Counted from the stretch's first letter, positions 8,420 through 60,695 are shown. The stretch is 64,000 bases of DNA from Desulfobaccales bacterium (GCA_052326585.1 JBKQLU010000048.1:6590-70589); one strand, 5' to 3'. Notes: generated by a model from the sequence alone, not told the origin. Made by a program: numbers and translations.

Positions 8420-8488
8420 GTCATTCTGAAGGGGCGGAGGCGACTGGAGAATCTTTAAATACGGGCGCTTCGCTGCGCTCAGGATGAC
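8420..8488. repeat. GTCATTCTGA...TCAGGATGAC inverted-repeat element (copy 1)
   Basis: The arms 'gtcattctgaag' and 'ctcaggatgac' are reverse complements and enclose GC-rich 'cgcttcgctgcgctc'. A related copy lies at 55129-55190. Confidence 0.6.
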
Positions 8489-8500
8489 AAAAGATGCAGA

Positions 8501-30207: not shown

Positions 30208-31590
30208 TCAGCCCTCCCCCTCCTTCCCGGGTTCCAGGCCGTAAGCCTTGAGTTTCCGGTAGAGGTGGGAGCGCTCCAGGCCGACCTTCTCCGCCAGTAG
30301 GCTGACGTTGCCCTGGCACTCCGACAATTTGCGCCGCAAGAACTGCTTCTCAAAGAGGGCCCTGGCCTCCCTAAAGGAGGGCACCTGGAGAAAGGGGTCG
30401 ATAAAGCGGTAATCGGCCGCCGGCTCTGGCCCGGAGGCGGCCAGGGGCAGATCGGCTACATCCACCAGATCGAAGGGACTGAGGATGGCCAGGCGGAAGA
30501 CGAAATTCTTCAACTCCCGGACGTTCCCCGGCCAGGGCATGGCGGCCACGGCCATGAGGGCCTCGGGGGTAAAGGTCTTGGCCGGGGCGCCGTTCTCCTG
30601 GGAGAGCTCCTTTAAGAAGTGGGCCGCCAGCAGAGGGATGTCCTGCCGGCGCTCCCGCAGGGGTGGCACGCTGAGGGGAATGACGTTGATGCGGTGATAG
30701 AGGTCTTCCCGAAAGGCCCCCTTGGCGATCTCCTCTTCCAGGTTCTTATTGGTGGCAGCCAGCACCCGCACGTCCACCTGGATGGAGCGGCCCCCCCCCA
30801 CCCTCTCGAAACGCTGCTCCTCCAGGATACGCAGAATCTTGGCCTGGGTCTTCAGGCTCATATCGCCGATCTCATCCAGGAACAGGGTGCCTTCATGGGC
30901 CAAATCAAACTTGCCCCGGTGCTGGCTGGAAGCCCCGGTGAAGGCCCCCTTCTCGTGGCCGAAGAGCTCACTTTCGATAAGGTCTTCGGGAATGGCGGCG
31001 CAGTTCACCTCCACCAGGGGCTGGTGTGCGCGACGGCTCAAGGCATGCAGGGCCCGGGCCACCAACTCCTTACCGGTGCCGTTTTCGCCGATGATGAGCA
31101 CCGCGGCGTTGGTGGGGGCCACCAGGGCCAATTTCTCCCGAAGACGGAGGATGGCGGCGCTTTCACCAATGATCTCCTTGACCGGGGCCCGCTGTTGGCG
31201 CAGGCGCCGGTTCTCTTCGGCGAGCCGGGCCCACTCCAGGCCATTGCGCACCGATAGCAGGATCTTATCGGCGTTGGGCGGCTTTTCGATGAAATCGAAG
31301 GCCCCCAGACGGGTAGCCTTGACGGCGTTCTCCACCGAGCCGTAAGCGGAGACCATAATCACCGGCAGCAGGGGGTGCTGCTTCTTCAGCTCAGTAAGCA
31401 CCTCCAGGCCATCCAGGCCAGGCAAGGCAATATCCAGGAGGACCAGGTCGGGGGCCTCGGCAGCCACCATTTTGATGGCAGTTTCGCCGTCCGGGGCAGT
31501 GAGCACCTCGAAGCCCTCATCTTGCAAGACCCCGGTTACGGCGCGCAGAATCTGGGGCTCGTCGTCAACTACCAGCAAGGTTCTCGGCAT
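30208..31590 (-). CDS. sigma-54-dependent response regulator (NtrC/NtrX-like enhancer-binding protein)
   Basis: REC domain 'LLVVDDEP...DLVLLDIALPGLDG'. AAA+ motifs 'GENGTGKE', 'GAFTGA' (GAFTGA loop) and 'FLDEIGD'. C-terminal HTH. The ATG at 31590 overlaps the kinase stop. Confidence 0.9.
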   Translation of the reverse strand: MPRTLLVVDDEPQILRAVTGVLQDEGFEVLTAPDGETAIKMVAAEAPDLVLLDIALPGLDGLEVLTELKKQHPLLPVIMVSAYGSVENAVKATRLGAFDFIEKPPNADKILLSVRNGLEWARLAEENRRLRQQRAPVKEIIGESAAILRLREKLALVAPTNAAVLIIGENGTGKELVARALHALSRRAHQPLVEVNCAAIPEDLIESELFGHEKGAFTGASSQHRGKFDLAHEGTLFLDEIGDMSLKTQAKILRILEEQRFERVGGGRSIQVDVRVLAATNKNLEEEIAKGAFREDLYHRINVIPLSVPPLRERRQDIPLLAAHFLKELSQENGAPAKTFTPEALMAVAAMPWPGNVRELKNFVFRLAILSPFDLVDVADLPLAASGPEPAADYRFIDPFLQVPSFREARALFEKQFLRRKLSECQGNVSLLAEKVGLERSHLYRKLKAYGLEPGKEGEG

Positions 31591-33811
31591 AATCGGCCCT
31601 GTGCATGGGAAAGTCGATGATGAATTTGGTCCCCCGGGGGACATTGTCTTCTACCCGGATATGGCCCTGGTGCTCGGCCACGATGGAATTGACGATGGCC
31701 AGGCCCAAACCGGTGCCGCCCCGCTTAGTGGAGAAGTAGGGCTCAAAGATGCGCACCTTGTCATGGTCCGGGACGCCCCTGCCGGTATCAGCCACGCTGA
31801 GTTCCACCCTGCCGTCGGCCGGAGTTCTCCGGATGGAGACCAGGATAGTCCCGGCCCCGTCAATAGAGGCCAAGGCGTTATCCAGTAAATTGAGGAGCAA
31901 CCGCTTCACCTGCTCACGGTCCAGGAGTACGGGGGGTAGCTGGGGGTCGGGGTGAAATTCCAGGACCACCCGGGGCTGAATTTCCCGGTAGAGGAGCACA
32001 GTCTCCTGGACCAGGGCGTTAAAATCCTGGGGGGCCAGGGTCAGTTGGGGCAGGCGGGCGAAGCGGGCAAAGTTATTCACCAGGTTCTGGAGTTCCTCCA
32101 CCTGGTTGACGATGATCTGGGTGCATTCCTGGAAGACCAGGCCATCCTCCCCGAGGCGGTCGGCGTAGCGCCGCTGCAAGCGCTGGGCCGCCAGCTTCAG
32201 GGGGGTCAGGGGATTCTTTACTTCATGGGCAATCCGGCGCGCCACCTCGCGCCAGGCCGCCAGCCGCTGGGCCCGCTCCAGTTCCGTCAGGTCTTCGAAG
32301 ACTATGACCACTCCCAGGTCACGGCCGGCTTCATCCTTGAGCACTGTGGTCTTAAGCAACAGATAAAGGGTCTGGTTGGGCAGGATCAGATGCAGGGGCT
32401 TCTCCACCGTGCCCCGAGCTGCGGCGCGGGCCGCGGCCACCACCTCGAGCATGCGCTGGTATTCGGCCGGCGGCAGCAGCACCCGGGCCTCCCGGCCCAA
32501 GACCTCCTCCCTTTTCAGGCGCAGCATCTGGGCGGCAGAATCATTGATCATGGTGACCTTGCCCGCCGCGTCCAGGGCGATGACCCCCGCGGCCACGTTT
32601 TTCAAGAGGATCTCCATGTCCCGCTTCTGGGTGGAGATGAGTTCGTGGGAGACGCTCAACTGCCCGTAGGCCGCGGCTAACTGCGCCTTGCCCTGCTGCA
32701 GGTCCTGGGTCATCTTATTGAAGGATTGCACCAGAAAGCCGATTTCGTCCCGGCCTTCCTGGTGAATCTGGAAGTCGTAGTCCCCTCCCGCCACCTTCAG
32801 GGCGCCCTCGGCCAGTTCCCGGATAGGGGTGGTTAACTCCCGGGCCATGTAAAACCCCAGCCAGATGGCGGCCATCAGGGCAATTAAGGTGACGATGATC
32901 AGGCCCAGGTAATGGCTCACCTTCAGCGGGCTGAATTGCAAAAGGCGCTGGCGCAGCTCCTGAAGGCTGCGTTCCGCGGCAGCGACCCGCAGCAGGTGGG
33001 TTTCGGGAATGGTCTGACGCACCAGCAGGTAGCCTTGGATCTCGCCGGCGGCATCGGTCACCGGCGTCAGGAAACTCAAGAGTTCCTGTGTACCGAGCTT
33101 CTGGCGGAGGACCACCTCCGCCGGGGTCTTAGTGCCCGGGGGAGCAGGCTGCGGCAATTCGGCCCCGCGCAGCAGAGGATCGTAGCTGGCGGCCAGCGGC
33201 GTCCCGTGCCGGTCCAGGACCTCCAGGCCGGTGAGGTGATAATCGGCGCGGCGCCGCTCGACGAAGGATCGCAAGTGATCTCGATCCCCACCAGCCAAAT
33301 GGCCGCCATCCTTCAATTCCTCAGCCAGCATGCGGCCATAGGCCTTGAGGTTGTCCTCCACCTCCAGGGAGAAGGTGCGGGTCAGACCAACAGCCTTGTC
33401 CAGGGACTCCTCCACCTGCCGGTCCCAGGAGTAATCGACCTGGCTGGAGAGGAGTTGCCAGGCCATAAAAATGAAGAACAGGGTGGGGAGCAAGGTGAGG
33501 CTCATGAAGGTGAGGACCAGGCGGGTGCGCAGCCGGGAGCCGAAGACCTTGCGGCGCCGCTCCAGGAAGAGTTTGGCCAGGTGCCGGAAGATGAGAAAGG
33601 TGAAGAGCAGCAGCAGGAAGACGTTGATATTCAGGAGGCTAAAGGCCAACATACTGCCGGCCATCGCCTGGCCGCCCTGGTGCACCAGGCGTACTTCCAT
33701 GGTAGTGATGCACACCACCAGCGCCAGGGTGAGGGCGATGAGGAGCCTTTCCCGTCGGCGCTTGCGAGATTCCCTGAGTTGATCCGGAGTGGGAGCGCGG
33801 TTGGTTGGCAT
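31565..33811 (-). CDS. NtrY-like sensor histidine kinase (TM-HAMP-PAS-HisKA-HATPase)
   Basis: HAMP 'ARELTTPIRELAEGALKVAGGDYD', H-box 'IAHEVKNPLTPL', and N/G boxes 'LLNLLDNA', 'DTGRGV' and 'GGTGLGLAIV'. The ATG at 33811 forms an ATGA overlap with the upstream kinase stop. The track's longer N-terminus is an artefact. Confidence 0.85.
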   Translation of the reverse strand: MPTNRAPTPDQLRESRKRRRERLLIALTLALVVCITTMEVRLVHQGGQAMAGSMLAFSLLNINVFLLLLFTFLIFRHLAKLFLERRRKVFGSRLRTRLVLTFMSLTLLPTLFFIFMAWQLLSSQVDYSWDRQVEESLDKAVGLTRTFSLEVEDNLKAYGRMLAEELKDGGHLAGGDRDHLRSFVERRRADYHLTGLEVLDRHGTPLAASYDPLLRGAELPQPAPPGTKTPAEVVLRQKLGTQELLSFLTPVTDAAGEIQGYLLVRQTIPETHLLRVAAAERSLQELRQRLLQFSPLKVSHYLGLIIVTLIALMAAIWLGFYMARELTTPIRELAEGALKVAGGDYDFQIHQEGRDEIGFLVQSFNKMTQDLQQGKAQLAAAYGQLSVSHELISTQKRDMEILLKNVAAGVIALDAAGKVTMINDSAAQMLRLKREEVLGREARVLLPPAEYQRMLEVVAAARAAARGTVEKPLHLILPNQTLYLLLKTTVLKDEAGRDLGVVIVFEDLTELERAQRLAAWREVARRIAHEVKNPLTPLKLAAQRLQRRYADRLGEDGLVFQECTQIIVNQVEELQNLVNNFARFARLPQLTLAPQDFNALVQETVLLYREIQPRVVLEFHPDPQLPPVLLDREQVKRLLLNLLDNALASIDGAGTILVSIRRTPADGRVELSVADTGRGVPDHDKVRIFEPYFSTKRGGTGLGLAIVNSIVAEHQGHIRVEDNVPRGTKFIIDFPMHRADYAENLAGS

Positions 33812-46432: not shown

Positions 46433-47041
46433 TTATTTACTCTGTACAGAGAAAACCAGGACCGCGGCTGCCCCTTCCGTTTCATTAACCAAGTGCAACA
46501 GATAATCTGGGGGCAGCCGGTGTTCGTAGCTGGTTTGTTTCCCCAGGTAAGTCAGGTATCCCGGGGTCGGCTTTTCAGGTAGCTTGGGTATCTCCGCCCG
46601 CCGTTGAATTATGGTCATGGTGGAGGTGCCTTGGAACTGGATTTCATTGATAAGGTCGGTGGTTTCCCCGTCCCTGGGGGCAGGGAGTCCGGCCAGGAGG
46701 AAGCTCTTGGCAATGTCCCGGGCGAAGACTCCTTCCCGGGGGTCATCAATGAAGGACCGGGCCAAAGCCATCTCCAGGGCCAGGATGCAGCCGGCAGCGT
46801 CAGTGGTGACCTTAACCGTCACCAGGGGGCGGAACTTTTCGCCGCTGGGCTTGAAGGCAGTCACGGTGCTGCCATCGCTTTTGCTCACCTGGCTCTGCTC
46901 CAAGTGAAAAAAATGGAAAAAATCTGTTTGTTTGGCCTGCTCCAGGGTCTCCCCCAGGTTTCCGAAGGATGCCGCGATCAGGGGCGCGGCGAGACCCAGG
47001 GGAACGAGCACCTTCGATAGAATGCCGCGAAGTTTGCCCAT
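46433..47041 (-). CDS. exported hypothetical protein
   Basis: 'MGKLRGILSKVLVPLGLAAPLIAASFG' is a signal-like N-terminus. I recognised no family motif. Confidence 0.5.
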   Translation of the reverse strand: MGKLRGILSKVLVPLGLAAPLIAASFGNLGETLEQAKQTDFFHFFHLEQSQVSKSDGSTVTAFKPSGEKFRPLVTVKVTTDAAGCILALEMALARSFIDDPREGVFARDIAKSFLLAGLPAPRDGETTDLINEIQFQGTSTMTIIQRRAEIPKLPEKPTPGYLTYLGKQTSYEHRLPPDYLLHLVNETEGAAAVLVFSVQSK

Positions 47042-47137
47042 TAAAAAAATGCCTCCAAAAAACAAGACCCCCGGCGCGGCTCCGCAGGCCAGCGCCGAAA
47101 CCATGGAGGGGATTAAACTACCAATGAACCCCAGCCC

Positions 47138-47632
47138 TCATAAATCGAGGCGGTAGGCCAGGGGTCCAGGCTCCCGGGGCTCGAAGTCCGGGGCTCGTTT
47201 AAAGCCCAGGTTCTCGTAGATATGCTGGGCCGCCAGCATGAAGCGGCCGGTGTATAAAAAGATGGTGGGGAGCTTCAGCTCCCGGGCCCGGCGCAGGCAC
47301 TCCCGGGTCAGCCTGGTGCCCAGGCCTTGGCCCCGGGCCTGGGCACGCACTGCCAGCAGGCGGATGGTGCCGGACCCCGCCGGCCAGTGGCCCTGGCTGG
47401 AGCGGCTGGCGTCAGGGTAGAACTGCACCACCCCCTGGATGGCCCCTGCCACTTCAGCCACCAGCAGCAGCCCGGCTCCGGTGTGAATAGCCTGGCTGAC
47501 GCTCTCCATCCACTTCTCCCAGCCCTCTGGGGGGACCAGTTCCCGATATTCCAGGTAGGCGCCCTTCACCAGGGACTCCACGGCCTCCAAGTCTCCGGCC
47601 CCGGCCTCCCGGATCACTAGGTTAACGCTCAA
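47138..47632 (-). CDS. GNAT family N-acetyltransferase
   Basis: The acetyl-CoA-binding motif 'RAQARGQGLGTRLTRECLRRA' (R/QxxGxG/A) sits in a protein of about 160 aa. Confidence 0.8.
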   Translation of the reverse strand: MSVNLVIREAGAGDLEAVESLVKGAYLEYRELVPPEGWEKWMESVSQAIHTGAGLLLVAEVAGAIQGVVQFYPDASRSSQGHWPAGSGTIRLLAVRAQARGQGLGTRLTRECLRRARELKLPTIFLYTGRFMLAAQHIYENLGFKRAPDFEPREPGPLAYRLDL

Positions 47633-47649
47633 GGTCTCTCTATTCCCGT

Positions 47650-48252
47650 TTAGGGTTTTTCCACTACCGTGGCCTTGACGATGACCACCGGGGTCAGCGG
47701 CACGTCCTGGTAGCCGTCCCGAGTTCCGGTGGGTACGGCCTTGATCTGGTCCACCACCTCGCGGCCCTGGACTACCTTGCCAAAGACCGCGTAGCCCCAG
47801 CCCTGGGGAGTCTTGGCAGTATGATTAAGGGATTTGTTGTCCGCCACATTGATGAAGAACTGGGAGGTGGCGGAATTGGGGTCGGAGGTCCGGGCCATGG
47901 CAACTGTGTAAGGCTGGTTGGTCAGGCCGTTGTCAGCCTCATTCTGAATGGGCGCCCGGTTGGGCTTCGGGTTCAGGTTGGCATCGAGGCCGCCGCCCTG
48001 GATCATAAAACCGTTGATGACCCGGTGAAAGACGGTCCCGTCATAAAAACCTTCCCGGACGTATTGCAGAAAATTGGCCACTGTGGCCGGGGCCTTATCC
48101 GGATACAACTCCAAGGTGATCTCTCCCAAGCTCGTTTCCAGTCTTACCAAGGGATTCCTCCTTTCCGCCCTGGCCGAGGTCCCGATAAGCGTGATCAGGG
48201 CCAGCATCATTAAGCACGCCAGCGCCAGCTGGCCATAAATTTTGGTTGGCAT
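47650..48252 (-). CDS. ppiA: periplasmic cyclophilin-type peptidyl-prolyl cis-trans isomerase
   Basis: Signal peptide. 'KAPATVANFLQYVREGFYDGTVFHRVINGFMIQGGG', 'SATSQFFIN' and 'GYAVFGKVV'. Confidence 0.9.
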   Translation of the reverse strand: MPTKIYGQLALACLMMLALITLIGTSARAERRNPLVRLETSLGEITLELYPDKAPATVANFLQYVREGFYDGTVFHRVINGFMIQGGGLDANLNPKPNRAPIQNEADNGLTNQPYTVAMARTSDPNSATSQFFINVADNKSLNHTAKTPQGWGYAVFGKVVQGREVVDQIKAVPTGTRDGYQDVPLTPVVIVKATVVEKP

Positions 48253-48460
48253 AATCATCCCCTCTAATAGCCTTATTCCGGCAGGATCTCCAGATACCGC
48301 GATTCGGCCCAGTGTAACAAATCGGTGGTCCCAGAGCAAATCCAGGATGCATAGATCTTCAGGAGGCTAAAAATCCGGGGGGGGGTATTGGGTTCAGGAG
48401 GACTGGCGGGCGAGGTTTGCCATCTGCGGTGATCTTAGGGCGATAATGTCCACCTCTACT

Positions 48461-48871
48461 TCATTCAGCCGCCCTGGTTTTCACTCGCCGGGATTGCTGC
48501 GGGTAATGCCTGTCCAGAACTTCGGCCACCACCGCCTTCAGATGATCCGTATCTCCTTGCTTTTCCAGAAAGGCGGCAGCCTGGGGAACCGTCAGGCGGG
48601 TCGGATATTCCGGCAAAAAGGTGTGGATCACCACCGGCAGCGGCGGCTGGCGGTCCTGGAGCCGGGCCCAGATTTCCAGCTCTTCCAGGTAGGGGATCTC
48701 CAGGTCCAGGATCAAGAGGTGCAGCGGTTCGCCGCTGCTCAATAGAGTCAGGAGCTCCCGGCCATCCCCGGCCACCACCACTTGATAACCCTCAGCCCCT
48801 AACTCCCGGCGCAGAAATTCCCGGACGTGCCGGTTGCGATCCGCAATCAAGATTTTGCAAGGCTCGGCCAC
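48461..48871 (-). CDS. single-domain response regulator (receiver only)
   Basis: 'KILIADRNRHVREFLRRELGAEGYQVVVAGDG...LLILDLEIP'. I place the start at the GTG at 48871 (SD GAGGGAAG) because a near-consensus sigma-54 promoter lies inside the longer track ORF. Confidence 0.7.
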   Translation of the reverse strand: MAEPCKILIADRNRHVREFLRRELGAEGYQVVVAGDGRELLTLLSSGEPLHLLILDLEIPYLEELEIWARLQDRQPPLPVVIHTFLPEYPTRLTVPQAAAFLEKQGDTDHLKAVVAEVLDRHYPQQSRRVKTRAAE

Positions 48872-48899
48872 CGCAGGATCTTCCCTCGGAACATAAATC

Positions 48900-48915
48900 A
48901 GCAACGGGCGTGCCA
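48900..48915 (-). promoter_or_regulatory. sigma-54 promoter TGGCAC-GCCCG-TTGCT
   Basis: The minus strand reads 'TGGCACGCCCGTTGCT', a full match to TGGCAC-N5-TTGCW, about 30 nt upstream of the GTG at 48871. Confidence 0.6.
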
Positions 48916-49017
48916 AACCCCGGGCTGAGGTGGCCTGATGCAACTAATTTATAATATTCTCTTTTTTCCGGAAGCACGCCCTACCCTCCCCCTTCCTGCC
49001 AGCGCGGTGACTGTCGC

Positions 49018-49044
49018 TATTTTTTACAGTTTGTAAAAGAAGGC
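49018..49044 (-). promoter_or_regulatory. putative enhancer (UAS) site A: GCCTTCTTTTACA-AAC-TGTAAAAAATA
   Basis: A perfect 6-bp inverted repeat TTTACA/TGTAAA lies about 115 bp upstream of the 48900 promoter. It matches site B at 55022-55050 over most of its length. Confidence 0.4.
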
Positions 49045-49139
49045 GTGGCTACTGGAGAGGGAGAAGACTAAATAACCTCACCTGGTGCGGCCAGTAATCG
49101 TGCAGCCAGGTTAGGGACGACCCTTAAAAAAAACGCCGG

Positions 49140-50579
49140 TTAAGGCCCTTCCATTCTGATGGAGGTCTCGAACTTCAAGCGGTATTTATCGATTTTGGAG
49201 AGCAGGGTGGGCCGGGAAATGCCCAGGAGCCGCGCAGCCCGGCTGCGGTTGCCGCCGGTGAGGTCCAGGGCCTCCGTGATGAGCAGCCGGGCGCAGCGGT
49301 CCATGACGGTATCGAACAGGTCTTTGCCGTCCCCTGACACCAGGGAGCGCCGCAACCATTGGCGGATGACCTCATCGGCCCCCTGGTCCCCCTCCACCCC
49401 CCTGGCCGGGCCTTCAAGGCCCATGGCCCGGGTGAGGTCCTCCGGGTGGATGGGATAGCCCCGGCTGAAGATCAGGGCCTTCTGCATGGCGTTGGCCAGC
49501 TCGCGGACGTTGCCGGGCCACGGGTAATTATGGAGCATGGCCTTGGCCGGCGCGTCCATGCCGGGATTGTCCAGTCCCATCTCCTTGGCGAACCGGGCCA
49601 GGAAATATTCCGCCAGCAGGGCCAGGTCTTCGGGGCGCTCCTTTAAGGGTGGCAGCCAGATAGTCACCACCTTGAGGCGGTAATAGAGGTCTTCCCGGAA
49701 CTTGCCGACGGCCAGGGCGGCCTCCAGGTCCCGGTTGGTGGCCGCAATGATGCGCACGTCCACCGGGATAGGGTCCCGGCCGCCCAGGCGTTCGATGCTC
49801 TTCTCCTGCAACAGTCTCAGTATCTTGGCCTGGATGCTGAAGGGCATATCGCCGATTTCGTCCAGAAAGACGGTGCCACCGTGGGCCTGCTCGAACTTGC
49901 CCACCCGGCGATTGACCGCCCCGGTGAAGGCCCCCTTTTCATAGCCGAAGAGTTCGGACTCCAGCAGGGTCTCCGGGATGGCCACGCAATTGATGACCAG
50001 AAAGGGTTTGGCACCTCGCAGGCTGTGCTGATAGGTGGCCCGGGCCACCAGCTCCTTGCCGGTGCCGGATTCCCCCCGGATGAGGACGGTGGCATCGGTG
50101 GGGGCCACCCGGCCAATGGCCTTATAGACCTCCTGCATGGGCTTGCTGCGGCCGATGATGGCCTCCGCGGCCGCGGTGGTCGGCGCCACGTCCAACTCCA
50201 CCCGGGAGCGCATGAAACGCCCGGCCTCCAGGGCCTGGCCGATCAAGGCCAGCATATCCGGAAATTCAGGGGGCTTGAGGACGTATTCAAAGGCCCCCAG
50301 CTTGGTGGCCTCGATGGCCGTCTCGGTCGTGCCATAGGCCGTCATGACGATCACCGGCAGCTTGGGCTCCATCTCATGGATGGCCCGGAAGGCCTCCAGG
50401 CCGTCCATCCCCGGCAGGCGCACGTCCATGATCACCAGGTCGGGGGTTTCGGCCTTGACCAGGGCCAGGGCCGCCTCACCGCTGGAGGCGGTCTTCACGT
50501 GGTAGCCATCCTCGGTCAAGAGCTTTTCAAAGCTTTGCCGCAACTGCGGGTCGTCGTCCACGATTAAGATTTTGCCCAT
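49140..50579 (-). CDS. sigma-54-dependent response regulator (NtrC/AtoC family)
   Basis: REC 'ILIVDDDP...DLVIMDVRLPGMDG'. AAA+ motifs 'GESGTGKE', 'GAFTGA' and 'FLDEIGD'. Fis-type HTH 'AARLLGISRPTLLSKI'. Confidence 0.92.
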   Translation of the reverse strand: MGKILIVDDDPQLRQSFEKLLTEDGYHVKTASSGEAALALVKAETPDLVIMDVRLPGMDGLEAFRAIHEMEPKLPVIVMTAYGTTETAIEATKLGAFEYVLKPPEFPDMLALIGQALEAGRFMRSRVELDVAPTTAAAEAIIGRSKPMQEVYKAIGRVAPTDATVLIRGESGTGKELVARATYQHSLRGAKPFLVINCVAIPETLLESELFGYEKGAFTGAVNRRVGKFEQAHGGTVFLDEIGDMPFSIQAKILRLLQEKSIERLGGRDPIPVDVRIIAATNRDLEAALAVGKFREDLYYRLKVVTIWLPPLKERPEDLALLAEYFLARFAKEMGLDNPGMDAPAKAMLHNYPWPGNVRELANAMQKALIFSRGYPIHPEDLTRAMGLEGPARGVEGDQGADEVIRQWLRRSLVSGDGKDLFDTVMDRCARLLITEALDLTGGNRSRAARLLGISRPTLLSKIDKYRLKFETSIRMEGP

Positions 50580-52048
50580 GCCTGTCCGTCCTTGAGGGGC
50601 AGGGTGATCATGAAGGTTGCCCCCTCCCTGGCCGCGGCGGCCAATTCCAACCTGCCGCCGTGGTCCTCGATGATCCGGGTGGCGATGCTCAAGCCCAGGC
50701 CGGTGCCCTCCTCCTTGGTGCTGAAAAATGGCTGAAAGACCTGGGGCCGGATAGATTCGGCGATGCCCGGGCCGGTGTCACTCACCCCGATGACCACTTC
50801 CTGCTCCGAGGCCGGAGACCGCCGGGCCTCCTCCCGGATGGTGATAACCCCGCCATTCACCATGACTTCGCAGGCGTTGACCAGCAGGTTGGCCAGGACT
50901 TCCTTGAGCTGGTCCGGGTCACCCAGGATTTCCGGCAGTCTTTGGGAACGCAGCAACTTCACCTGCACCCCGTAGGATTCGAGGCGATGGCGCAGCAGTT
51001 GCAAGGCTCCGTCCACCACGTCGGAGGGACTGATGTTTTGCATCTTGAGCTTGGGTGGCCGGGAGAATTCCAGAAAATTCCGGACAATGGCGTCCAGACG
51101 GCGGATCTCTTCGGAGATCACCTCGAAATCATCCCGCTGGGAAGAGGTCATTTTTAGGGAACGCTTCAGGGAAAAGAGGCGCATGTTTACCGAGGTCAAG
51201 GGGTTGCGGATGCTGTGGGCCACCCCGGCGGCCAGTTTTCCCACCAGGGCCCATTTCCCGGTTTGCAGCAGGTGCTCCTGGCTGCGTTCCAGTTCGCTCT
51301 GGGCCTGGTCCACGTTCTCGATGAGGCTGTGCACCCGGCGGCTCAGGGTTTTGACTTCATCCAGACCCGGCTTCTCGCCACCGCCGGGCCCGGTCTCCAG
51401 GGCCAGCCGGCGAATGGGCTCCAAAATCTGCTTGGAGAGAATATAGGCCAGCAAAATTCCCAAGGCCGCCACCCCTGGCAAGACCGCCAGGGCCAAGGCG
51501 TTGATAAACCTGGCCTGGGCCTGGCTCGTAAGGCGCACCCGGGAAATGGCATACTGCTGCATCAGCTTATATCGTTCGCACAGTTGCAAGAGGGCGGCAA
51601 ATTGGCGGCGCAGCTCCCAGTGCAACCTGGCCCCGGCTTCCCGCTGCCCCCGCGCGTACAAGTCGATCACCTGTTGCCGGGATTGGCCATAGGCGCCGTA
51701 GCCGGCATCAATCTGCCGGATAAGCTCCGCCATGGGCTCCGTATCGGCGGATTTTCGGGCCTTTTGCAGCCATTCGACAAAGTCCTGCTGGTGCTGCTCC
51801 ATCTGCTTGAGCCAGTCGGGGTTGCCGTCCAGGAAATGATAGGTGAGGAAACCTCTTTGACTCAACAGAGAGGCGGTCAGCTCCTCCGCCGCCTGAAAGG
51901 AGGCCACGTCCTTGTCGATGAGGGAGGCCAGGAGGGCGTCCATGGCGCGGGTGTGCCAGAGGGTGACCAGGCCGCCCCCCAAGGTGGCGCCCACCAGGGC
52001 AGTCAATAACAAGAAGATGCGGGCCCGCAGGCTGAGCCGTTTCCACAT
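50564..52048 (-). CDS. sensor histidine kinase (TM-HAMP-HisKA-HATPase)
   Basis: H-box 'VAHSIRNPL'. 'LLVNACEV', 'DTGPGI' and 'GTGLGLSIA'. A 16-nt overlap with the downstream regulator. Confidence 0.88.
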   Translation of the reverse strand: MWKRLSLRARIFLLLTALVGATLGGGLVTLWHTRAMDALLASLIDKDVASFQAAEELTASLLSQRGFLTYHFLDGNPDWLKQMEQHQQDFVEWLQKARKSADTEPMAELIRQIDAGYGAYGQSRQQVIDLYARGQREAGARLHWELRRQFAALLQLCERYKLMQQYAISRVRLTSQAQARFINALALAVLPGVAALGILLAYILSKQILEPIRRLALETGPGGGEKPGLDEVKTLSRRVHSLIENVDQAQSELERSQEHLLQTGKWALVGKLAAGVAHSIRNPLTSVNMRLFSLKRSLKMTSSQRDDFEVISEEIRRLDAIVRNFLEFSRPPKLKMQNISPSDVVDGALQLLRHRLESYGVQVKLLRSQRLPEILGDPDQLKEVLANLLVNACEVMVNGGVITIREEARRSPASEQEVVIGVSDTGPGIAESIRPQVFQPFFSTKEEGTGLGLSIATRIIEDHGGRLELAAAAREGATFMITLPLKDGQAWAKS

Positions 52049-52348
52049 AGCTAATAAGTGATGTTACCACAAAAATAAGGGAATCGCCCCGGCCTTATCG
52101 AACTTCCCCGGGGGGTGGTCCCCTAAATTCCAAAGCGGGCGGTGGTTCCAGCCGCAGATTTTATGGTTAGCCCCAGCCGGCGGCCCGAAAGCAAATCCTG
52201 CTGTCCCGGAAAATGACAATCTGGTATATTTCTAGATAGCAGGAAACGTCCCTGGAGGAAGGCGATTACAGGTTGGAGCCGGGTGCAGGGCGGAAGTTCC
52301 CGGCCGCGCCTTGAAAAACTTAAATAATATCTGAGGATATAAACAAAG

Positions 52349-52585
52349 ATGAAATCCTTAACCGACAGCTACCGGGAACAATCCCTGAAGATTCACGGCA
52401 TGGTCTGCGCCAAATGCGGCCGGGAATTCACCCAGAAGAACCGGAATCTCCTGACCGTGCACCACAAGGATGGCAACCACCGGAATAATCCCAGGGATGG
52501 GTCCAATTGGGAGAATCTCTGCATCTACTGCCATGATGACGAGCACAGCCGAAAACTTCTGGCTGACTATCTCAGCGGTAAATGA
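52349..52585 (+). CDS. yajD: YajD-family HNH endonuclease
   Basis: 'CAKCGREF...LTVHHKDGNHRNNPRDGSNWENLCIYCHDDEH' is collinear with E. coli YajD as I remember it. Confidence 0.85.
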   Translation: MKSLTDSYREQSLKIHGMVCAKCGREFTQKNRNLLTVHHKDGNHRNNPRDGSNWENLCIYCHDDEHSRKLLADYLSGK

Positions 52586-52755
52586 CGGCGCTGCCTTTCG
52601 TAAAACTGGGCCTCCGGCCTGGCCGCGGCCCGCGATCTTTTTCCCCGTGCAGCTTCTCTTCCCAGGCCGCCGCGATCTTCAACCGCAAAGGCCAGCCCTG
52701 CCGCCGGGACCGGTCGTGATCCTGGGGTGAAAATCCAAGTCCCGGCAGCTTCAGC

Positions 52756-53151
52756 CTAATGAGAGCCCGGGCCTTCCTGGACCAGCTTTCTGGCATAGGC
52801 CTGGCGCACCTTTTCCAGCAACTCATCCAGGGCTATCGGCTTCATGAGGTAATCGAAGGCCCCCAATTGCATCCCCTGGATCCCCGTCTCCACCGAGGCG
52901 TGGCCGGTGAGCATGATGACTTCCGTCAGGGGCTTCTTCTTTTTGATTTCCCGGAGGGTCTCGATGCCGTCCATGCCCGGCATCTTGACGTCCAGGATGA
53001 TGACGTCCGGCGGGCTGCTGTCCAGGGCTTCCAAGGCCCGATAGCCGCTCTCCACCCCGCTCACGTCGATATCGCGGGCCCGGAGCCTCTTGACTATGGT
53101 CTCCAGAAAATCGGCTTCATCATCTACAATCAAAACCTTGAACTTTTCCAT
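52756..53151 (-). CDS. CheY-like single-domain response regulator
   Basis: 'KVLIVDDEADFL', 'DVIILDVKMPGMDG', 'VIMLTGH' and 'DYLMKP'. Confidence 0.9.
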   Translation of the reverse strand: MEKFKVLIVDDEADFLETIVKRLRARDIDVSGVESGYRALEALDSSPPDVIILDVKMPGMDGIETLREIKKKKPLTEVIMLTGHASVETGIQGMQLGAFDYLMKPIALDELLEKVRQAYARKLVQEGPGSH

Positions 53152-53167
53152 GACGCCCCCTTTCGGC

Positions 53168-54823
53168 TTATCTGACCGGGAAATATATGGTGAAGGTAGT
53201 GCCCTGGCCCTCCTCGCTGGCCACCATTATCCGGCCCCCCAATTTTTCCACGATACTGTAGGAAATGGAAAGGCCCAGGCCGGTGCCCTTGCCCGCCTCC
53301 TTGGTGGTGAAGAAGGGATCGAAGATCTTGTTCAGCATCTCCCTGGGGATGCCGGGGCCGCTATCGCTAATCTCTATGCCGATCTCATTATTTTTGGCCA
53401 GATGCCTGGTCTGGAGATGGACCTCACCATCCTTGCCAATGGCGTCGATGGCGTTATTGAGGATATTGAGAAAGACTTGCTGCATCTGCGCCGAATCGCT
53501 GTTAGTCATGGGAAGATCGGGGGCATAATCGGCCTCGATCTCGATCTTGCGATAGCGGGCCTCATTTTCCAAAAAGGCCGCGCTCTCGGCCAGGACGGTG
53601 TTGATATTGAGGACCTCGGTGACCGGCTCCATTCGCCGGGCAAAGCCCAGGAGACGGTGGGTTATCGTCTTGGCGCGGTTGATATGATACTCAATCTTGT
53701 TCACCGCCGCGTCTATTTCCTGAAAATCCTCGTTCTTGGAGATATCTACCCTAGTTAGCAAGTCTTTAATCCAACCGGCCTTTTCGCCGATGACCGCCAA
53801 AGGATTATTGATTTCGTGGGCAATGCCGGCGGCCATCTTCCCCAACGCCGCCATCTTGCTTTCCTGCAGGGCCATCTCCTCGCTGGCGGCCTTCTTCCGT
53901 GCCATGTCGATCATTTCATTCATCATCGAGCGGGTGGCGAGCACCGCGCCGATGACAATCAACGCCACTCCCCCCAGGGCAATCAAGACCATCAGGGACT
54001 TGGTGCGCAGCAGGGGGGTCAACTGGTCCCCGGGGTCTTCCCGGATTACCAGCGCCCATTTCTTCAGTTTGACGATGCCGGCGGCGAAAAGCCCTTCAGC
54101 GCCATGGACCGTGAGTTCCTCGGCCTGGGGAACGCTGGCCTTGGAGAAATCCGGCCCCGGCGCCGGTTGCAGCACGGCCCCGGCAAACCGGGGCTTGGTT
54201 TGCAAAATATCCTGGTCGTTAATGAGAAAGGCATCCCCCTTTTTGCCGACCCAGGCGGCCCGCACCATGTTCTCAATAGTGTCCGAATCGATGGTGGCCC
54301 GCAGGATCCAGCTCTGGCTCCCTTCCCGCACCAGCACCGCAATGATAAAATGCGGAATCTTGCGAAATCCCAGAAACACGTCGCTCACATAAACGCCGGT
54401 GGACATCACCGCGTGGAACCAGTCCTCGTCCTTATAATTTGCCGATTTCATGAGGGAGTAATACGGCCCCACGTAGGCCAGGTGCCTGCCTTCCTGATCG
54501 ATAATCCCCAGATCCAAATAAGACCTGGAACGGGCCTGGATGATGTTGAACACCTTTTCCAGGTAGGCTTCATCCCGCAGTTTTTCCGGGGGGATGATAT
54601 GAGCCAGACTGGTGAGCTGGGAGATGCGTTCGTCCAAAAAGAGATCGATGGAACTGGAACGGTTTTCCGCCAGGGTCTTCATATCCTCCATGATCTTGGT
54701 GTAGTAGGATTGGCTGAACTGGTAATAGATGAAGGCTCCCAGGATGAGCAGCGGGATTACCGAAAAGGCCAAAATGGTCAGGATAATCTGCCGCCATAAT
54801 TTTTTATAGTATTCCCGCTGCAT
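53168..54823 (-). CDS. sensor histidine kinase with extracytoplasmic Cache-like domain
   Basis: Two TM segments flank a domain of about 250 aa. H-box 'IAHEINNPL'. '[11 protein letters not shown]', 'DSGPGI' and 'GTGLGLSIS'. Confidence 0.88.
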
Positions 54824-54913
54824 CCCGATGACCGCCTCTCGAGGGCCGAGATCTTTTCTGAGATAGCCCGATCCGCCGGGTTCCAGAGACCGGGGCTCGT
54901 CGAAACTTAGCCA

Positions 54914-54929
54914 AGCAATAGCCGTTCCA
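54914..54929 (-). promoter_or_regulatory. sigma-54 promoter TGGAAC-GGCTA-TTGCT
   Basis: The minus strand reads 'TGGAACGGCTATTGCT' with canonical GG/GC spacing, about 90 nt upstream of the ATG at 54823. Confidence 0.55.
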
Positions 54930-55021
54930 AGGGAGAGCCGCCTGGTTAACCAAATGTAATCATTTAATTAACTTATCGAAGCCGCCTGGCTTCCGGGAAA
55001 AATACGGGACCTACATGTCAA

Positions 55022-55050
55022 TATTTTTTACAGGGTTGTAAAGGAAGGCC
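55022..55050 (-). promoter_or_regulatory. putative enhancer (UAS) site B: GGCCTTCCTTTACA-ACCC-TGTAAAAAATA
   Basis: It has the same TTTACA/TGTAAA inverted repeat and flanks as site A, and lies about 105 bp upstream of the 54914 promoter. Confidence 0.4.
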
Positions 55051-55128
55051 ACGCCCCGTGCCTTTCTGGTATAATAACAGCTAGCGTGGCCGGAGATGCC
55101 ACCCGATTATGGCCAAGATAGCAGAATT

Positions 55129-55190
55129 GTCATTCTGAGCGAAGCAAATAATCGAATTCTTTTTAACGCCGCCGCGCTCGGTTCAGGATA
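55129..55190. repeat. GTCATTCTGAGCGAAGC...TTCAGGATA inverted-repeat element (copy 2, degenerate right arm)
   Basis: 'gtcattctgagcgaagcaaataatcgaattc ... gcgctcggttcaggata' is related to 8420-8488. Confidence 0.55.
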
Positions 55191-55415
55191 ATCTTGAATC
55201 TCTCCGCCTGATCGGCTAACATTTGAAGATAAGGCAACTTTCCCGGCTGGGCCCCGGCCGGGTGAAACCGGAGACCATGTCCAGAAAGCGCCACCAGGGT
55301 CCGCATTGGACCGAAAGGTCACCGGGGAGATCCGCGCTGGCCCTCACCGGTACTGGAGAGGTGCGTGATTTCCTGTCCTGGGGAGCGCCGGCTCGCCCCA
55401 AGGTTTTCTGAACCT

Positions 55416-56861
55416 ATGAAACGCCTGAATCTGCGAACTATTTGGATGCGACCGGACCAAGACCTGAACCCCTTCGGCCTGGTAAAATTCTTTTCTTTGC
55501 CGGGTTTTATCGTCATCACCATCGTCACCGGCATTCTGGTGGTTTTGCTGACTCTCCGGGCCCAGCAGATGATCATGAAGAAGAACGAAGCCTACCTGGA
55601 GTTACTGGCGGCCAACCTGAACCACCAGATCTTTCAGCAGTTCGTGCTGCCTACTGCCTTCGAAAGGGGCGGCCGGATTACCTTATCCGACCCAGAGCAG
55701 TCCCACCGCCTGGATGAGGTGGTGCGCACCACCATCCACGGGTTTCACGTGGACGAGTTGAACCAGTACGATCAAGAGGGGGTCTTTTCCTACAGCACCG
55801 CCCACCTGCCCCTGGGCAAAAAGTCCGCTGACCTTCCCGGGGTTCAGAGGGCCCTGGCCGGGGAGAACTATTTTGAGGTGCCCGGCTACGGTCCCCTTAG
55901 CGTCCTCTGGCCTCGCAGCACTCAGTCGAAGCACCTCAAGGCCTTCATCCCCTTCCGCCTGGAGAAAGAGTTAACCACCCCCTCGGGGCCGGTTATAGGG
56001 GTCTTTGAGATCACCCAGAACATCTCCGGCGATCTGGCGGAAATCAATAAATTTCGCCTCCTGATCATGGTCATCCTGGTGGTGATTATGGGCTGCCTTT
56101 TTATTGTCCTGCGCCAGATCGTCAAGCGGGCTGGCCTGATTCTGGCCCGGCGCCAGGAGGAGCAACGGTCCTTGGAGGCCCAGTTGCACCAGTCGGAGCG
56201 TCTGGCGGCCCTGGGGGAGATGACCGCAGGGGTGGCCCATGAAATCCGCAACCCCTTGGGGATCGTCAGCTCCACCGCCGAACTGCTGCAAGAGCGCCTG
56301 GCCCGCTACGAGCCGCAAAACCGCCTGGCCTGGATTATCGTGGAGGAAGCCAACCGCCTCAATGAAAAGGTCACGGAATTCCTCGATTTTGCCCGGCCTC
56401 GGGTGCCCCAGTTGCGCCCCTGCGACCTGGAGGCGGTCCTGGACCGGGGTCTTGAGTTCCTGGAGCCGGAGATCCAGCGCCTGGGAATAGAGGTCAACCG
56501 GGATTACCATCTCCGGGGCCGGGCCCTGGTCGCGGACCCGGACCTGTTGTACCAGGCCTTCCTGAACCTGCTGCTCAACGCCATCCAGGCCATGCCCGGG
56601 GGCGGCCGCTTCACTGTGTCCACCCAACCGGGCCCCCAGGGCCGCGGCGGCGAGATCCGCTTTGCCGACAGCGGCGAAGGCATTGAGCCGGAAAGCCTCA
56701 AAAAGGTCCTCAACCCTTTCTTCACCACCAAGGTAAGAGGCAGCGGCCTGGGTCTGCCCATCGTCAAGAGCATTATCGAAACCCATCAAGGCACCATGAA
56801 GATCGACAGCGCCGTGGGCCAGGGCACGGTGGTAGCCATCACCCTGCCGAGGTTGCAATAA
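55416..56861 (+). CDS. sensor histidine kinase
   Basis: Two TM segments. H-box 'VAHEIRNPL'. 'LLLNAIQA', 'DSGEGI' and 'GSGLGLPIV'. The ATG at 55416 is preferred over the track start at 55365. Confidence 0.85.
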   Translation: MKRLNLRTIWMRPDQDLNPFGLVKFFSLPGFIVITIVTGILVVLLTLRAQQMIMKKNEAYLELLAANLNHQIFQQFVLPTAFERGGRITLSDPEQSHRLDEVVRTTIHGFHVDELNQYDQEGVFSYSTAHLPLGKKSADLPGVQRALAGENYFEVPGYGPLSVLWPRSTQSKHLKAFIPFRLEKELTTPSGPVIGVFEITQNISGDLAEINKFRLLIMVILVVIMGCLFIVLRQIVKRAGLILARRQEEQRSLEAQLHQSERLAALGEMTAGVAHEIRNPLGIVSSTAELLQERLARYEPQNRLAWIIVEEANRLNEKVTEFLDFARPRVPQLRPCDLEAVLDRGLEFLEPEIQRLGIEVNRDYHLRGRALVADPDLLYQAFLNLLLNAIQAMPGGGRFTVSTQPGPQGRGGEIRFADSGEGIEPESLKKVLNPFFTTKVRGSGLGLPIVKSIIETHQGTMKIDSAVGQGTVVAITLPRLQ

Positions 56862-56921
56862 TGGCTAGGCTGGGGCCGGGGACGGCCGCCCTCCCAAAAA
56901 TCCAAACTCGAAACTCTTGTT

Positions 56922-58289
56922 ATGGATACCATCTTAGTCGTTGACGATGAAATCAATTATTTGACGGTCATGGAAGCCCTGCTGGGAGGGGAGGGCTACG
57001 AGGTCCTTACCGCCCCCAGCGCCCCGGAGGCCTTGAAGGTCGCCGACGCCGCTGACCTGGACCTGGTGCTCACCGACATGAAGATGCCCAAGATGAGCGG
57101 CATCGAGCTCCTGGAAGAGCTGCGCCGCCTCTATCCGGACCTGCCGGTGATCATCATGACGGCCTTCGGCACTGTGGAACTGGCCGTCACCGCCATGAAG
57201 AAAGGGGCCTTCGACTACATCCTGAAACCCTTTAAAAATGAGGGGATCCTGGCGACCATCGCCAAGGCCCTGGAGCACCGCCACCTCCTCCTCGCCAACC
57301 GGCTGTTATACCAGGACTTGGACAAGAAATACGGCTTTCCCAACATCGTCGGGGAATCCCGGGTCATGGCGGAGATCCTGGCCCTGGTCAAAAGGGTGGC
57401 CACCTCCAAGGCCACCGTCCTGGTCACCGGCGAAAGCGGCACCGGCAAAGAGCTGATCGCCCGGGCCACGCACCAGTGCAGCAACCGGGCGCAGCGGCCA
57501 TTCATCTCGGTCAACTGCGCCGCGCTTACCGAAACCCTGCTCGAAAGCGAGCTCTTCGGCCACGAGCGGGGCGCCTTTACCCACGCGGTGGCCATGCGTA
57601 AGGGGCGCTTCGAACTGGCCGACGGCGGCACCCTGTTCCTGGATGAAGTGGCGGAGATGTCCCAGGCCCTCCAGGTGAAACTGCTCCGGGTCCTCCAGGA
57701 GATGGAGTTCGAACGGGTCGGGGGCAACCGCTCCATCAAGGTGGACGTGCGGGTGGTGGCTGCCTCGAATCGGGACCTGAAGGAAGAGGTGGAGGCCGGC
57801 CGCTTCCGTGAAGACCTGTTCTACCGCCTCAATGTGGTTCATCTGCATATCTCCCCCCTGCGCCAGCGCCCGGAGGACATCCCCCTGCTGGCGGTCCACT
57901 TCATCAAGAAGTACGCCCAGGAAAACACCCGGGGCAAGATCCGCCTCACCCCGGAGGCCTTGAAGTTGCTGGTGCAGTACCCCTGGCCCGGCAACGTCCG
58001 GGAGCTGGAAAACGTCATGGAGCGGGCCGTGATCCTCTGCGCCAATAACCTGATCACCCCCGAGGACCTGCCCGGGGAAATGGCTCCCGCCGCCGGGGGT
58101 AAACTGGACATCGACCATTTCGTCCCCCTGCATACCCCCCTGCCGGAGGCCCTGGAGGCCATTGAGGAACAGATGATTCGCCGGGCCCTGGAGCAGAGCG
58201 GCCAGGTGCAGGTGCGGGCCGCCGAGATGCTGGGCATCACCAAGAGCCTGCTGCAATACAAGCTGAAGAAGTATCATCTGACTACATAA
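56922..58289 (+). CDS. sigma-54-dependent response regulator (NtrC family)
   Basis: REC 'ILVVDDEINYL...DLVLTDMKMPKMSG'. 'GESGTGKE', 'GAFTHA' (GAFTGA variant) and 'FLDEVAE'. HTH 'AAEMLGITKSLLQYKL'. Confidence 0.92.
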   Translation: MDTILVVDDEINYLTVMEALLGGEGYEVLTAPSAPEALKVADAADLDLVLTDMKMPKMSGIELLEELRRLYPDLPVIIMTAFGTVELAVTAMKKGAFDYILKPFKNEGILATIAKALEHRHLLLANRLLYQDLDKKYGFPNIVGESRVMAEILALVKRVATSKATVLVTGESGTGKELIARATHQCSNRAQRPFISVNCAALTETLLESELFGHERGAFTHAVAMRKGRFELADGGTLFLDEVAEMSQALQVKLLRVLQEMEFERVGGNRSIKVDVRVVAASNRDLKEEVEAGRFREDLFYRLNVVHLHISPLRQRPEDIPLLAVHFIKKYAQENTRGKIRLTPEALKLLVQYPWPGNVRELENVMERAVILCANNLITPEDLPGEMAPAAGGKLDIDHFVPLHTPLPEALEAIEEQMIRRALEQSGQVQVRAAEMLGITKSLLQYKLKKYHLTT

Positions 58290-59916: not shown

Positions 59917-60117
59917 TGCCGGACTCGGTAACTAGTATTTATCAAATCAAATGAAAAACCTGAGTTCCGGGGGTATTAAAGTCCCATTTTGTCAAAGGCG
60001 GGTTCAAGAACCGCGGTTGGAAATGTCCTGGCAATTATGGAGCGCCACACTCCCGAGGTTGCTTCTCCGTTGGCCCGATCTTACCTTTTCTCCGAGACCG
60101 GAAAAGGAGAAGGGAAG

Positions 60118-60537
60118 ATGCAGAAAGCAAGGTCATGGCTGCTGCTGGTGGCGCTCAGCCTGATGCTGGCGATCCCTTGGTCATGTTCCAGCGCCCAGGC
60201 CCCCGGACCGGAAGCCCCGCGTCTGGCCCCCGAAACTCTAAAAAGCTGGCTCTCCGACCCCCAGGTACTTATCCTGGATGTGAGGCAGCCTCCGGAATGG
60301 GCCAGCAGCGATAAAAAAATCGCGGGCGCGGTGCGCCAGGATCCCAACGATGTCAAGACCTGGGCCACGGGCCTGCCGAAGGAGAAAAAAATCGTCCTGT
60401 ACTGCTCCTGACACAACGAGGGCACCAGCGCCCGGGTGGCGCAGCAATTGCTAGCAATGGGCTTCCCCCAGGTTTGGGCCTTGAAAGGCGGCTGGACGGA
60501 ATGGGAGAGGAGGGGCTACCCCACCGATTCGCAATGA
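60118..60537 (+). CDS. exported rhodanese-like protein, predicted selenoprotein (in-frame UGA = residue 98)
   Basis: The track ORF stops at the TGA at 60409-60411, in the middle of the rhodanese active-site loop ('KKIVLYC96-S-TGA-HNEGTSARVAQQLLAMGFPQVWALKGGWTEWERRGYP'). The same frame stays open for 41 more codons that complete the domain (GGW..W..GYP). A GC hairpin with a CGGGU loop lies 16 nt downstream. SD AAGGAGAAGGG precedes the ATG at 60118. Confidence 0.6.
60428..60442 (+). promoter_or_regulatory. SECIS-like hairpin (GCGCC-CGGGU-GGCGC)
   Basis: A 5-bp GC stem with a G/U-containing apical loop starts 16 nt after the UGA. This is within the spacing range reported for bacterial SECIS elements. 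It was not evaluated with a covariance model. Confidence 0.35.
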
Positions 60538-60695
60538 GAACCGTGGTGGCAGGTGGGGGTTATAAAGGGTTCCGGATTATGCCGGCGTCGAGCCTGGCGG
60601 CAAAGTGCTAATGTGGTATTTCCGCAGAACTTCTAAAGAGAGTTTCACGGAAAGCATTGCCAACTCAAGGGGTTGTCCTTGGTGATATTTTCATT

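Follow-up and report, generated by a model that had tools for sequence, protein, structure and literature searches.

Two sigma-54 promoters in a Desulfobaccales genome share a conserved upstream site, probably bound by the neighbouring activator EBP1

Do two sigma-54 promoters of a Desulfobaccales bacterium, each reading into genes for signalling proteins, answer to one common activator? The question is raised by a 64,000 nt stretch of this genome, here called the window, in which both promoters and the sites upstream of them lie on the minus strand. A first-pass annotation had described two -24/-12 promoters, each preceded by the same motif, and had read this motif as a shared enhancer. The elements of the two promoter regions are as follows.

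48900..48915, minus strand: sigma-54 promoter A, TGGCACGCCCGTTGCT, with GG-N10-GC spacing
54914..54929, minus strand: sigma-54 promoter B, TGGAACGGCTATTGCT
49012..49037, minus strand: upstream activator site A, TTTACAAACTGTAAAAAATAGCGACA, spanning about -148 to -123 relative to the predicted start
55016..55042, minus strand: upstream activator site B, TTTACAACCCTGTAAAAAATATTGACA, spanning about -139 to -113 relative to the predicted start
48941..48953, minus strand: IHF-like site A, TATAAATTAGTTG, one mismatch to WATCAANNNNTTR, within an AT-rich tract
54957..54969, minus strand: IHF-like site B, AATTAAATGATTA, one mismatch, its AT-rich block partly kept in orthologues

Both promoters were found where the first-pass annotation had placed them, with the GG-N10-GC spacing it described. 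Compared with YTGGCACG-N4-TTGCW, in which GG and GC are exactly 10 nt apart, promoter A is a full match and promoter B has one departure. The transcription starts predicted from them are at about 48889 (promoter A) and 54903 (promoter B). The loose pattern TGG-N8-TTGCW is unspecific alone (11 matches in the window, 5.2 expected), and the stricter TGG[CA]A[CT]-N5-TTGC[TA] matches only promoters A and B in the window. The motif is likewise restricted to these places. TTTACA-N3/4-TGTAAA has exactly two matches in the 64 kb, at sites A and B, where shuffled sequences give 0.00, and TGTAAAAAATA has two matches in the window against 0.17 expected. When the two intergenic regions are aligned, similarity is seen in three places only: the motif block, an AT-rich stretch and the promoters. 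The block common to both reads GCCTTC.TTTACAA.CTGTAAAAAATA..GACA.

The motif copies as marked earlier were 49044-49018 and 55049-55022 on the minus strand, with 122 nt (A) and 113 nt (B) from motif start to TGG. Their core is present, but the element runs on towards the promoter to a GACA at 49012 (A) and 55016 (B), and the gccttc prefix at the other end is not conserved. Site A thus has three half-sites, TTTACA, TGTAAA and GACA. The palindrome TTTACA/TGTAAA, to which the first-pass annotation had drawn attention, is conserved, and the TGT-N11-ACA dyad to its right is equally so. From TGT to TGG there are 113 nt at site A and 103 nt at site B.

The genes on either side of these elements, all recognised through Pfam, include the two transcription units that the first-pass annotation had placed behind the promoters and the three sigma-54 activators it had noted nearby.

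48461-48871, minus strand: receiver-only protein, target gene 1, 136 aa with a GTG start, a called gene in L001
53168-54823, minus strand: dCache-HisKA-HATPase sensor kinase, target gene 2a
52756-53151, minus strand: CheY-like single-domain response regulator, target gene 2b, in an operon with the Cache kinase by synteny
49140-50579, minus strand: EBP1, with PF00072, PF00158, PF25601 and PF02954 (REC, AAA+, Fis-type HTH, HTH_8)
50564-52048, minus strand: HK1, the sensor kinase paired with EBP1 (4HB_MCP, HisKA, HATPase), overlapping the start of EBP1
55365-56861, plus strand: HK3
56922-58289, plus strand: EBP3, a REC-AAA+-HTH activator
30208-31644, minus strand: EBP2, a REC-AAA+-HTH activator

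In orthologous genomes both loci retain the motif together with its promoter, and the sequence around them has diverged. Homologues of EBP1 are numerous at 82-96% identity, the named ones being Desulfobaccales, and the locus is also present in two metagenome assemblies. The HK1-EBP1 pair is kept in many loci, and in three long Desulfobaccales contigs (L003-L005) the gene order HK1-EBP1-receiver is kept as well. Each of these three contigs holds TTTACA-N3-TGTAAAA-N7-ACA twice. The first copy is between the stop codon of EBP1 and the receiver gene, the second is upstream of the gene run Usp-DVU0150-TauE-DUF4881-262aa-HK1-EBP1, and both are 120-121 nt ahead of TGGCACGG..TTGCT. Site A is found at the orthologous position in L003, L004, L005, L052, L114 and L147, and loci orthologous to promoter A have TGGCACGGCGGTTGCT at equal distance.

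For site B, the motif and promoter are followed by orthologues of the Cache kinase (kinase identity 69-89%) in L033, L111 and L079, and by more distant dCache kinases in about 20 loci. These three orthologues keep TTTACAA-CCTGTAAAAAATATTGACA, the AT block and TTGGAACGxCCATTGCTT, and the remainder diverges. The promoter itself reads TGGAACGGCCATTGCT in L033 and L111, and its conserved counterpart in L079 is TGGAACGACCATTGCT. In the alignment, the first spacer of site B in the window has one extra C relative to the three orthologues, which leaves the TGT-N11-ACA spacing unchanged. Site B therefore owes its N4 spacer to a lineage-specific insertion or to an assembly error.

To see how far the motif extends, TTTACA-N2/3-CTGTAAAAA-N6-ACA was searched in one genome per species, with no promoter in the pattern, and at least 120 stretches were returned. 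Among the matches listed, 83 are from Desulfobacterota, comprising Desulfobacterales, Desulfobaccales, Desulfomonilaceae, Desulfatiglandales, one Desulfohalobiaceae and one metagenome-assembled genome labelled Syntrophobacterales. Desulfosarcina alkanivorans, Desulfonema magnum, Desulfonema limicola, Desulfosudis oleivorans, strain NaphS2 and Desulfobacca are the cultivated organisms among them. A strict promoter, defined as TGG.A.-N5-.TGC. located 95-165 nt downstream, follows 77 of the 81 listed Desulfobacterota matches with enough downstream sequence and 1 of the 36 from other phyla, which are mostly AT-rich phyla (Fisher p = 3e-24). Three of the remaining four Desulfobacterota matches have a variant promoter. 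Of 79 sites, 75 have the promoter on the GACA side and none has it on the opposite side. A dispersed repeat found mainly away from sigma-54 promoters, named at the outset as what would speak against a shared enhancer, is not what is seen, because of this difference in promoter association among the matches listed (77/81 against 1/36).

Pooling the DNA of all loci gave 120 distinct motif-plus-promoter sites from many genera, from which a position frequency matrix was made. The consensus is an asymmetric 26 bp element, yTTTACA-nn-C-TGTAAAAAA-n-yy-GACA, which can also be written yTTTACA-nn-CTGTAAAAAA-n4-GACA. The G before ACA is present in 110 of the 120 sites, though the search left that base free. 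The element consists of a 17 bp TGT-N11-ACA dyad with an extra inverted TTTACA half-site 3 nt upstream, and no second full dyad is present in the 120 sites. Upstream of TTTACA there is no conservation in these sites, the gccttc prefix not being kept in other genomes, and a second, degenerate left half-site in that position was ruled out on this ground. Distances from TGT to TGG are most often 110-116 nt, and smaller peaks at 100-104 and 90-93 nt fall about one and two helical turns short of this.

The spacers between site and promoter have a further feature in common. A perfect WATCAANNNNTTR IHF consensus occurs in 19 of the 120, where shuffled spacers give 0.8. Seventeen of these have their centre 31-35 nt ahead of TGG, within a conserved AT-rich tract, and the other two are about 10 nt closer. 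Both window loci have their one-mismatch IHF-like site at the family position. From 150 nt upstream to the promoter no further conserved element was found, the IHF-like site aside. Conservation of the paired elements in orthologues, the strict promoter behind 77 of the 81 matches listed and the positioned IHF-like site bear out the first-pass reading of a shared enhancer for sigma-54 promoters. Its expectation for an upstream activator site in position and symmetry also holds, given a conserved site, a phased distance and a dyad that fits a dimer of Fis-type HTH domains. Judged from sequence, this layout, which precedes over 100 distinct promoters in Desulfobacterota, marks a real conserved regulon whose mechanism is of an ordinary kind.

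Which activator would bind the site? The first-pass annotation had made no choice between the three. The genes flanking the motif point to EBP1. Among the matches listed, 13 genes encode activators of the EBP1 type (61-92% identity) directly ahead of the motif on its own strand, and no other activator type recurs beside it. Eleven of the 13 are intact and have in common the domain GGNRSxAAKLLGxSRPTLxSKIxKY. The other two, in L026 and L114, are interrupted open reading frames, placed in the EBP1 type by tblastn identity (85-89%). The association was also seen in a sample drawn blind to the motif, in which metagenomes were searched with an alignment of the C-terminal DNA-binding domain of the EBP1 type. 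Motif and promoter are present in 21 of the 39 closest family loci and in none of 41 distant relatives in that domain, DVU0118-like proteins included (p = 6e-9). In the 21 loci the motif is mostly within a few hundred nt 3' of the stop codon.

EBP1 is an NtrC-family activator with a canonical GAFTGA loop. NtrC/NR(I) proper, the name that JGI gives to homologues, does not apply: the score against TIGR01818 (NtrC/NR(I)) is 498.2, below the cut-off of 558.6, no NCBIfam equivalog is reached, and the context is unrelated to nitrogen. It is most likely that EBP1, rather than EBP3 or EBP2, is the candidate binder of both sites. The two promoters are probably enhancer-dependent sigma-54 promoters that share one activator site and would be run by HK1-EBP1.

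Several observations weigh against this assignment, and some of them favour an alternative in which the enhancers are genuine but another activator binds them, either one like DVU0110/PrsR or, at site B, EBP3, with EBP1 a mere conserved neighbour. EBP1 is named only as a candidate because the 17 bp core is the site predicted for DVU0110/DVUA0057, whose DNA-binding domains are unlike that of EBP1. In Desulfovibrio, TGTAAAAAAAGCTGACA was predicted upstream of the TSUP permease operon DVU0132-0133 and attributed to DVU0110/DVUA0057 (Kazakov 2015, PMC4641369). Its core TGTAAAAAA-N4-GACA is identical to that of the present element, the window having TGTAAAAAATAGCGACA and TGTAAAAAATATTGACA, and DVU0110 shifted the DVU0132 upstream region in vitro. 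The DNA-binding domains of DVU0110 and EBP1 agree in about 13 of 42 residues (counted by hand, domains only compared). EBP1 was not found to be an orthologue of DVU0110 or DVUA0057; by DNA-binding domains only, its best match is DVU0118, the closest of the D. vulgaris activators with 25 of 42 residues. The validated motif of DVU0118 is ATGTTCCC-N4-GGGAACAT, unlike the site described here. A motif of that type (TGTTCC...GGAACA) was looked for because of the resemblance between the two domains, and it is absent from the window and from L003-L005. Further, 18 of the 39 EBP1-family loci lack the motif in the DNA examined, rpoN was not found in the window, and the one-base insertion between the first two half-sites could weaken site B.

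The alternative of another activator is nevertheless considered unlikely, although it deserves some weight. A DVU0110-like DNA-binding domain is found beside none of the approximately 80 Desulfobacterota sites listed, while genes of the EBP1 type flank at least 13, and the sample drawn without regard to the motif shows it going with the EBP1 family but not with related ones. The attribution to DVU0110 is computational and joint with DVUA0057, and no motif has been validated for either regulator (Rajeev 2011, PMC3333781). As for EBP3, it divergently adjoins site B together with HK3 in the window and in L033, but in the L079 orthologue EBP3/HK3 are not beside site B. EBP3 has GAFTHA instead of GAFTGA, and its DNA-binding domain agrees with that of DVU3305 in 29 of 42 residues. 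The validated site of DVU3305, GTTGC-N5-GCAAC, is absent near site B. EBP2, which is unrelated to the motif, agrees in 28 of 42 residues of its DNA-binding domain with DVU3023 (LurR), which regulates lactate utilisation in D. vulgaris.

A second alternative is that the motif is the site of a non-activator protein, such as a CRP/FNR-like factor or a repressor, or a bent A-tract, with the true enhancer elsewhere. Factors of the CRP/FNR type also use TGT-N10/11-ACA dyads. The A6-7 tract would bend DNA, and there is one composite site per promoter, whereas many activators use two full dyads. This is very improbable. Between -150 nt and the promoter nothing else is conserved, the IHF-like site aside. 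Fixed orientation and a helically phased distance to the -24 element are what looping by an activator requires, and a single family of activator genes shows close linkage to the motif. A chance match, dispersed repeat or remnant of intergenic duplication, to which the AT-richness of the motif and the commonness of the loose -24/-12 pattern in the window (11 against 5 expected) would lend themselves, can practically be set aside, since the chance expectation of the motif is zero matches, the two regions do not align outside motif, AT block and promoter, the elements are kept in orthologues of each locus where flanks diverge, and the same architecture recurs at 120 distinct sites across many genera.

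With EBP1 as the candidate binder, a course of events can be proposed. HK1, through its periplasmic four-helix-bundle sensor, would respond to its signal by phosphorylating EBP1, and dimers of EBP1 would occupy the TGT-N11-ACA dyad and the adjacent TTTACA half-site. The 26 bp site TTTACA-N3-TGTAAAAAA-N4-GACA would be centred approximately 125-135 bp, and the IHF-like site approximately 58-60 bp, upstream of the predicted start. EBP1 may then form the active ring and reach the sigma-54 polymerase by looping, assisted by IHF bending the spacer, with ATP hydrolysis leading to promoter opening. We infer from this layout that expression would depend on RpoN and IHF. The targets in the window would be the atypical receiver just downstream of EBP1 and the Cache-kinase/CheY operon. 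In relatives they would be TSUP/TauE and DASS anion transporters, Usp and CBS proteins, and in Desulfobaccales also the operon ending in HK1-EBP1. Both window targets are signalling proteins, which points to a transcriptional cascade between two-component modules. The first-pass annotation had suggested such a cascade, and it is borne out across genomes, where the motif most often precedes genes for receiver proteins and Cache-kinase/CheY operons.

Enhancer-dependent sigma-54 promoters of this kind are known from textbook cases, namely NtrC at glnAp2 and the NifA sites (TGT-N10-ACA) with IHF. As in these, a dyad site is found 100-150 bp upstream, with a putative IHF bend between it and a GG-N10-GC promoter, and the activator has the REC-AAA+(GAFTGA)-Fis HTH structure with a histidine kinase as partner. 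The 17 bp TGT...ACA dyad geometry is also similar. The present system differs in its recognition sequence, in having a single composite site of three half-sites rather than at least two full dyads, in the strictly fixed orientation and phased spacing, and in its targets, which are signalling proteins and anion transporters and not nitrogen genes.

The DVU0132 operon is sigma-54-dependent and a TSUP/TauE permease is also frequent behind the Desulfobacterota motif. The published DVU0132 site corresponds to the right-hand 17 bp only, at approximately 210 nt from the annotated promoter, unlike the motif here. A second parallel in D. vulgaris is the kinase-activator pair DVU0803/DVU0804, which is followed by a sigma-54-dependent operon with a CheY-like receiver, DVU0805-0806 (Rajeev 2011; Kazakov 2015). 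The succession of pair and receiver operon is similar, and the binding fragment there holds TGTAAA and TTTACA half-sites. Its half-sites are arranged as GTAAAC-N5-GTTTAC and the DNA-binding domain differs, and orthologues of DVU0803/DVU0804 are reportedly confined to a few Desulfovibrio species. The DVU0150-0146 operon of D. vulgaris, with DVU0150 and a TSUP gene, is sigma-54-dependent and is assigned to a different, one-component activator.

An analogous enhancer may exist in another phylum. In four Bacteroidales/Bacteroidota loci (L073 406-432, L074 5157-5183, L092 at about 3204 on the minus strand, and L022 7237-7274) there are two tandem 17 bp TGTAAA-N5-TTTACA palindromes 3-4 nt apart, with TGGCACGGGTAATGC 82 nt downstream in three of the four; by their sequence, these look like an analogous enhancer. 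The L022 palindromes, with 3 nt between them, have an activator gene 15 nt upstream, and the DNA-binding domain of its product is about 50% identical to the EBP1 type (counted by hand). By comparison, the Desulfobacterota site may consist of a full dyad and the proximal half of another.

Some features in the immediate neighbourhood of the sites were also considered. At 55067..55075 on the plus strand there is an extended -10, TGgTATAAT, in a block GTTATTATA(A/C)CAGAAAGG conserved in L033, L111 and L079. It probably serves the divergent HK3-EBP3 operon as its promoter and adjoins the enhancer without belonging to it. An activator at site B would sit approximately 40-65 bp upstream of the HK3-EBP3 start on the opposite strand. 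A plus-strand hairpin and T-run at 49004-49017, overlapping site A, was considered as a terminator and rejected because the T-run is the A-tract of the motif and terminator-like matches are at chance level (8 found, 8.1 expected). Rfam gave no match over 47000-57000. The dispersed 17-mer CTTCGCTCAGAATGACA is present at 55128-55144 (minus strand) and 8473-8489 (plus strand) of the window, at 11621-11637 of L003 and at 6273-6289 of L007, and recurs in intergenic DNA of the source genome and of related genomes.

The receiver at 48461-48871 reads 'ADRNRHVREFLRRE', with one acidic residue where CheY has two, and keeps the phospho-acceptor Asp, Thr and Lys. It belongs to a conserved, atypical family with 'ILIADRN(R/P)xVRxFLxRE', which has orthologues in L003-L005, L052, L114 and others. 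Upstream of HK1, within 52049-52755, is a gene for a 78 aa HNH endonuclease (52349-52585, plus strand). It takes the place of approximately 7 kb that in relatives carry PPDK-like, Usp, DVU0150, TauE, DUF4881 and 262 aa protein genes ahead of HK1-EBP1. No terminator-like site was found on the minus strand between the CheY gene and HK1 (52049-52755), and for this reason read-through from promoter B into HK1-EBP1 is conceivable. Farther away, a sigma-54-like match at 60437-60452 was rejected as a promoter, being inside the reading frame of a rhodanese. This rhodanese-like open reading frame (59989-60538, plus strand) is broken by an in-frame TGA at 60409-60411, directly after 'KIVLYCS', and reading through it yields the remaining rhodanese domain. 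The TGA may be a selenocysteine codon or a sequencing error; a convincing hairpin 3' of it was not found (fold z = 0.9).

The genes that the motif would control were grouped by family, taking the gene that comes first after each of 110 sites.

Receiver or receiver-CBS proteins: 28 of 110 sites
Usp: 16 of 110 sites
dCache kinases: 13 of 110 sites
Na_sulph_symp/CitMHS (DASS) transporters: 7 of 110 sites
CBS-pair proteins: 5 of 110 sites
Cytidylate-kinase-like proteins: 4 of 110 sites
TauE/TSUP: at least 3 of 110 sites

DVU0150-like proteins, a PBP-like binding protein, a porin and a DAC cyclase are single or rare first genes, and tandem kinase-CheY arrays and PPDK-like genes are common nearby. 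In the window itself DASS, TauE, Usp, CBS, PPDK-like and other regulon families were not found. One locus, L024, has DASS-CheY-dCacheHK-CheY directly behind a site.

These families recall a conserved cluster with DASS-type sulfate transporters in Desulfobacteraceae and further sulfate reducers. According to the accessible portion of the paper describing it, this cluster contains many Cache kinases, response regulators and CBS proteins and is proposed to control sulfate uptake (PMC11887813), with sulfate as the proposed ligand sensed by the Cache kinases (Sci Adv 2025, PMC11887813). Insofar as that portion describes the cluster, the genes behind the motif are alike, being DASS transporters, dCache kinases with receiver partners, and CBS proteins. 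In the same portion, the account of the cluster is given without sigma-54 promoters, an enhancer or the pair of 4HB-sensor kinase and activator, and sigma54 is named once, in a passage on catabolic regulators. Full-text literature searches for the motif strings gave no relevant paper, and the literature searched held only the 17 bp core, in a supplement. Apart from that core, the literature searched gives no description of the specific site, its rigid geometry, its spread across Desulfobacterota or the link to the putative sulfate-uptake cluster, whereas the mechanism is a textbook one.

For the question of how sulfate uptake is regulated in sulfate reducers, together with the many Cache-type kinases clustered with DASS and TSUP transporters, the 26 bp site offers a concrete, testable regulon, because its promoter partner and a candidate activator are identified with it. 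Among the cultivated strains that this regulon reaches are Desulfosarcina alkanivorans PL12, Desulfonema magnum and Desulfobacca. The site is also a clean natural case of an enhancer with fixed orientation and helical phasing, which helps to annotate sigma-54 regulons in metagenome-assembled genomes. That HK1-EBP1 is the conserved top-level switch of a putative sulfate-uptake network in sulfate-reducing Desulfobacterota is a tentative proposal, and rather doubtful as yet. If it is true, one four-helix-bundle sensor system would license Cache-kinase/CheY arrays through a rigid enhancer-IHF-sigma-54 module, together with TSUP and DASS anion transporters, Usp and CBS proteins and, in some lineages, its own genes. 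This would be a hierarchical, self-reinforcing two-component cascade of a kind without description in the literature searched.

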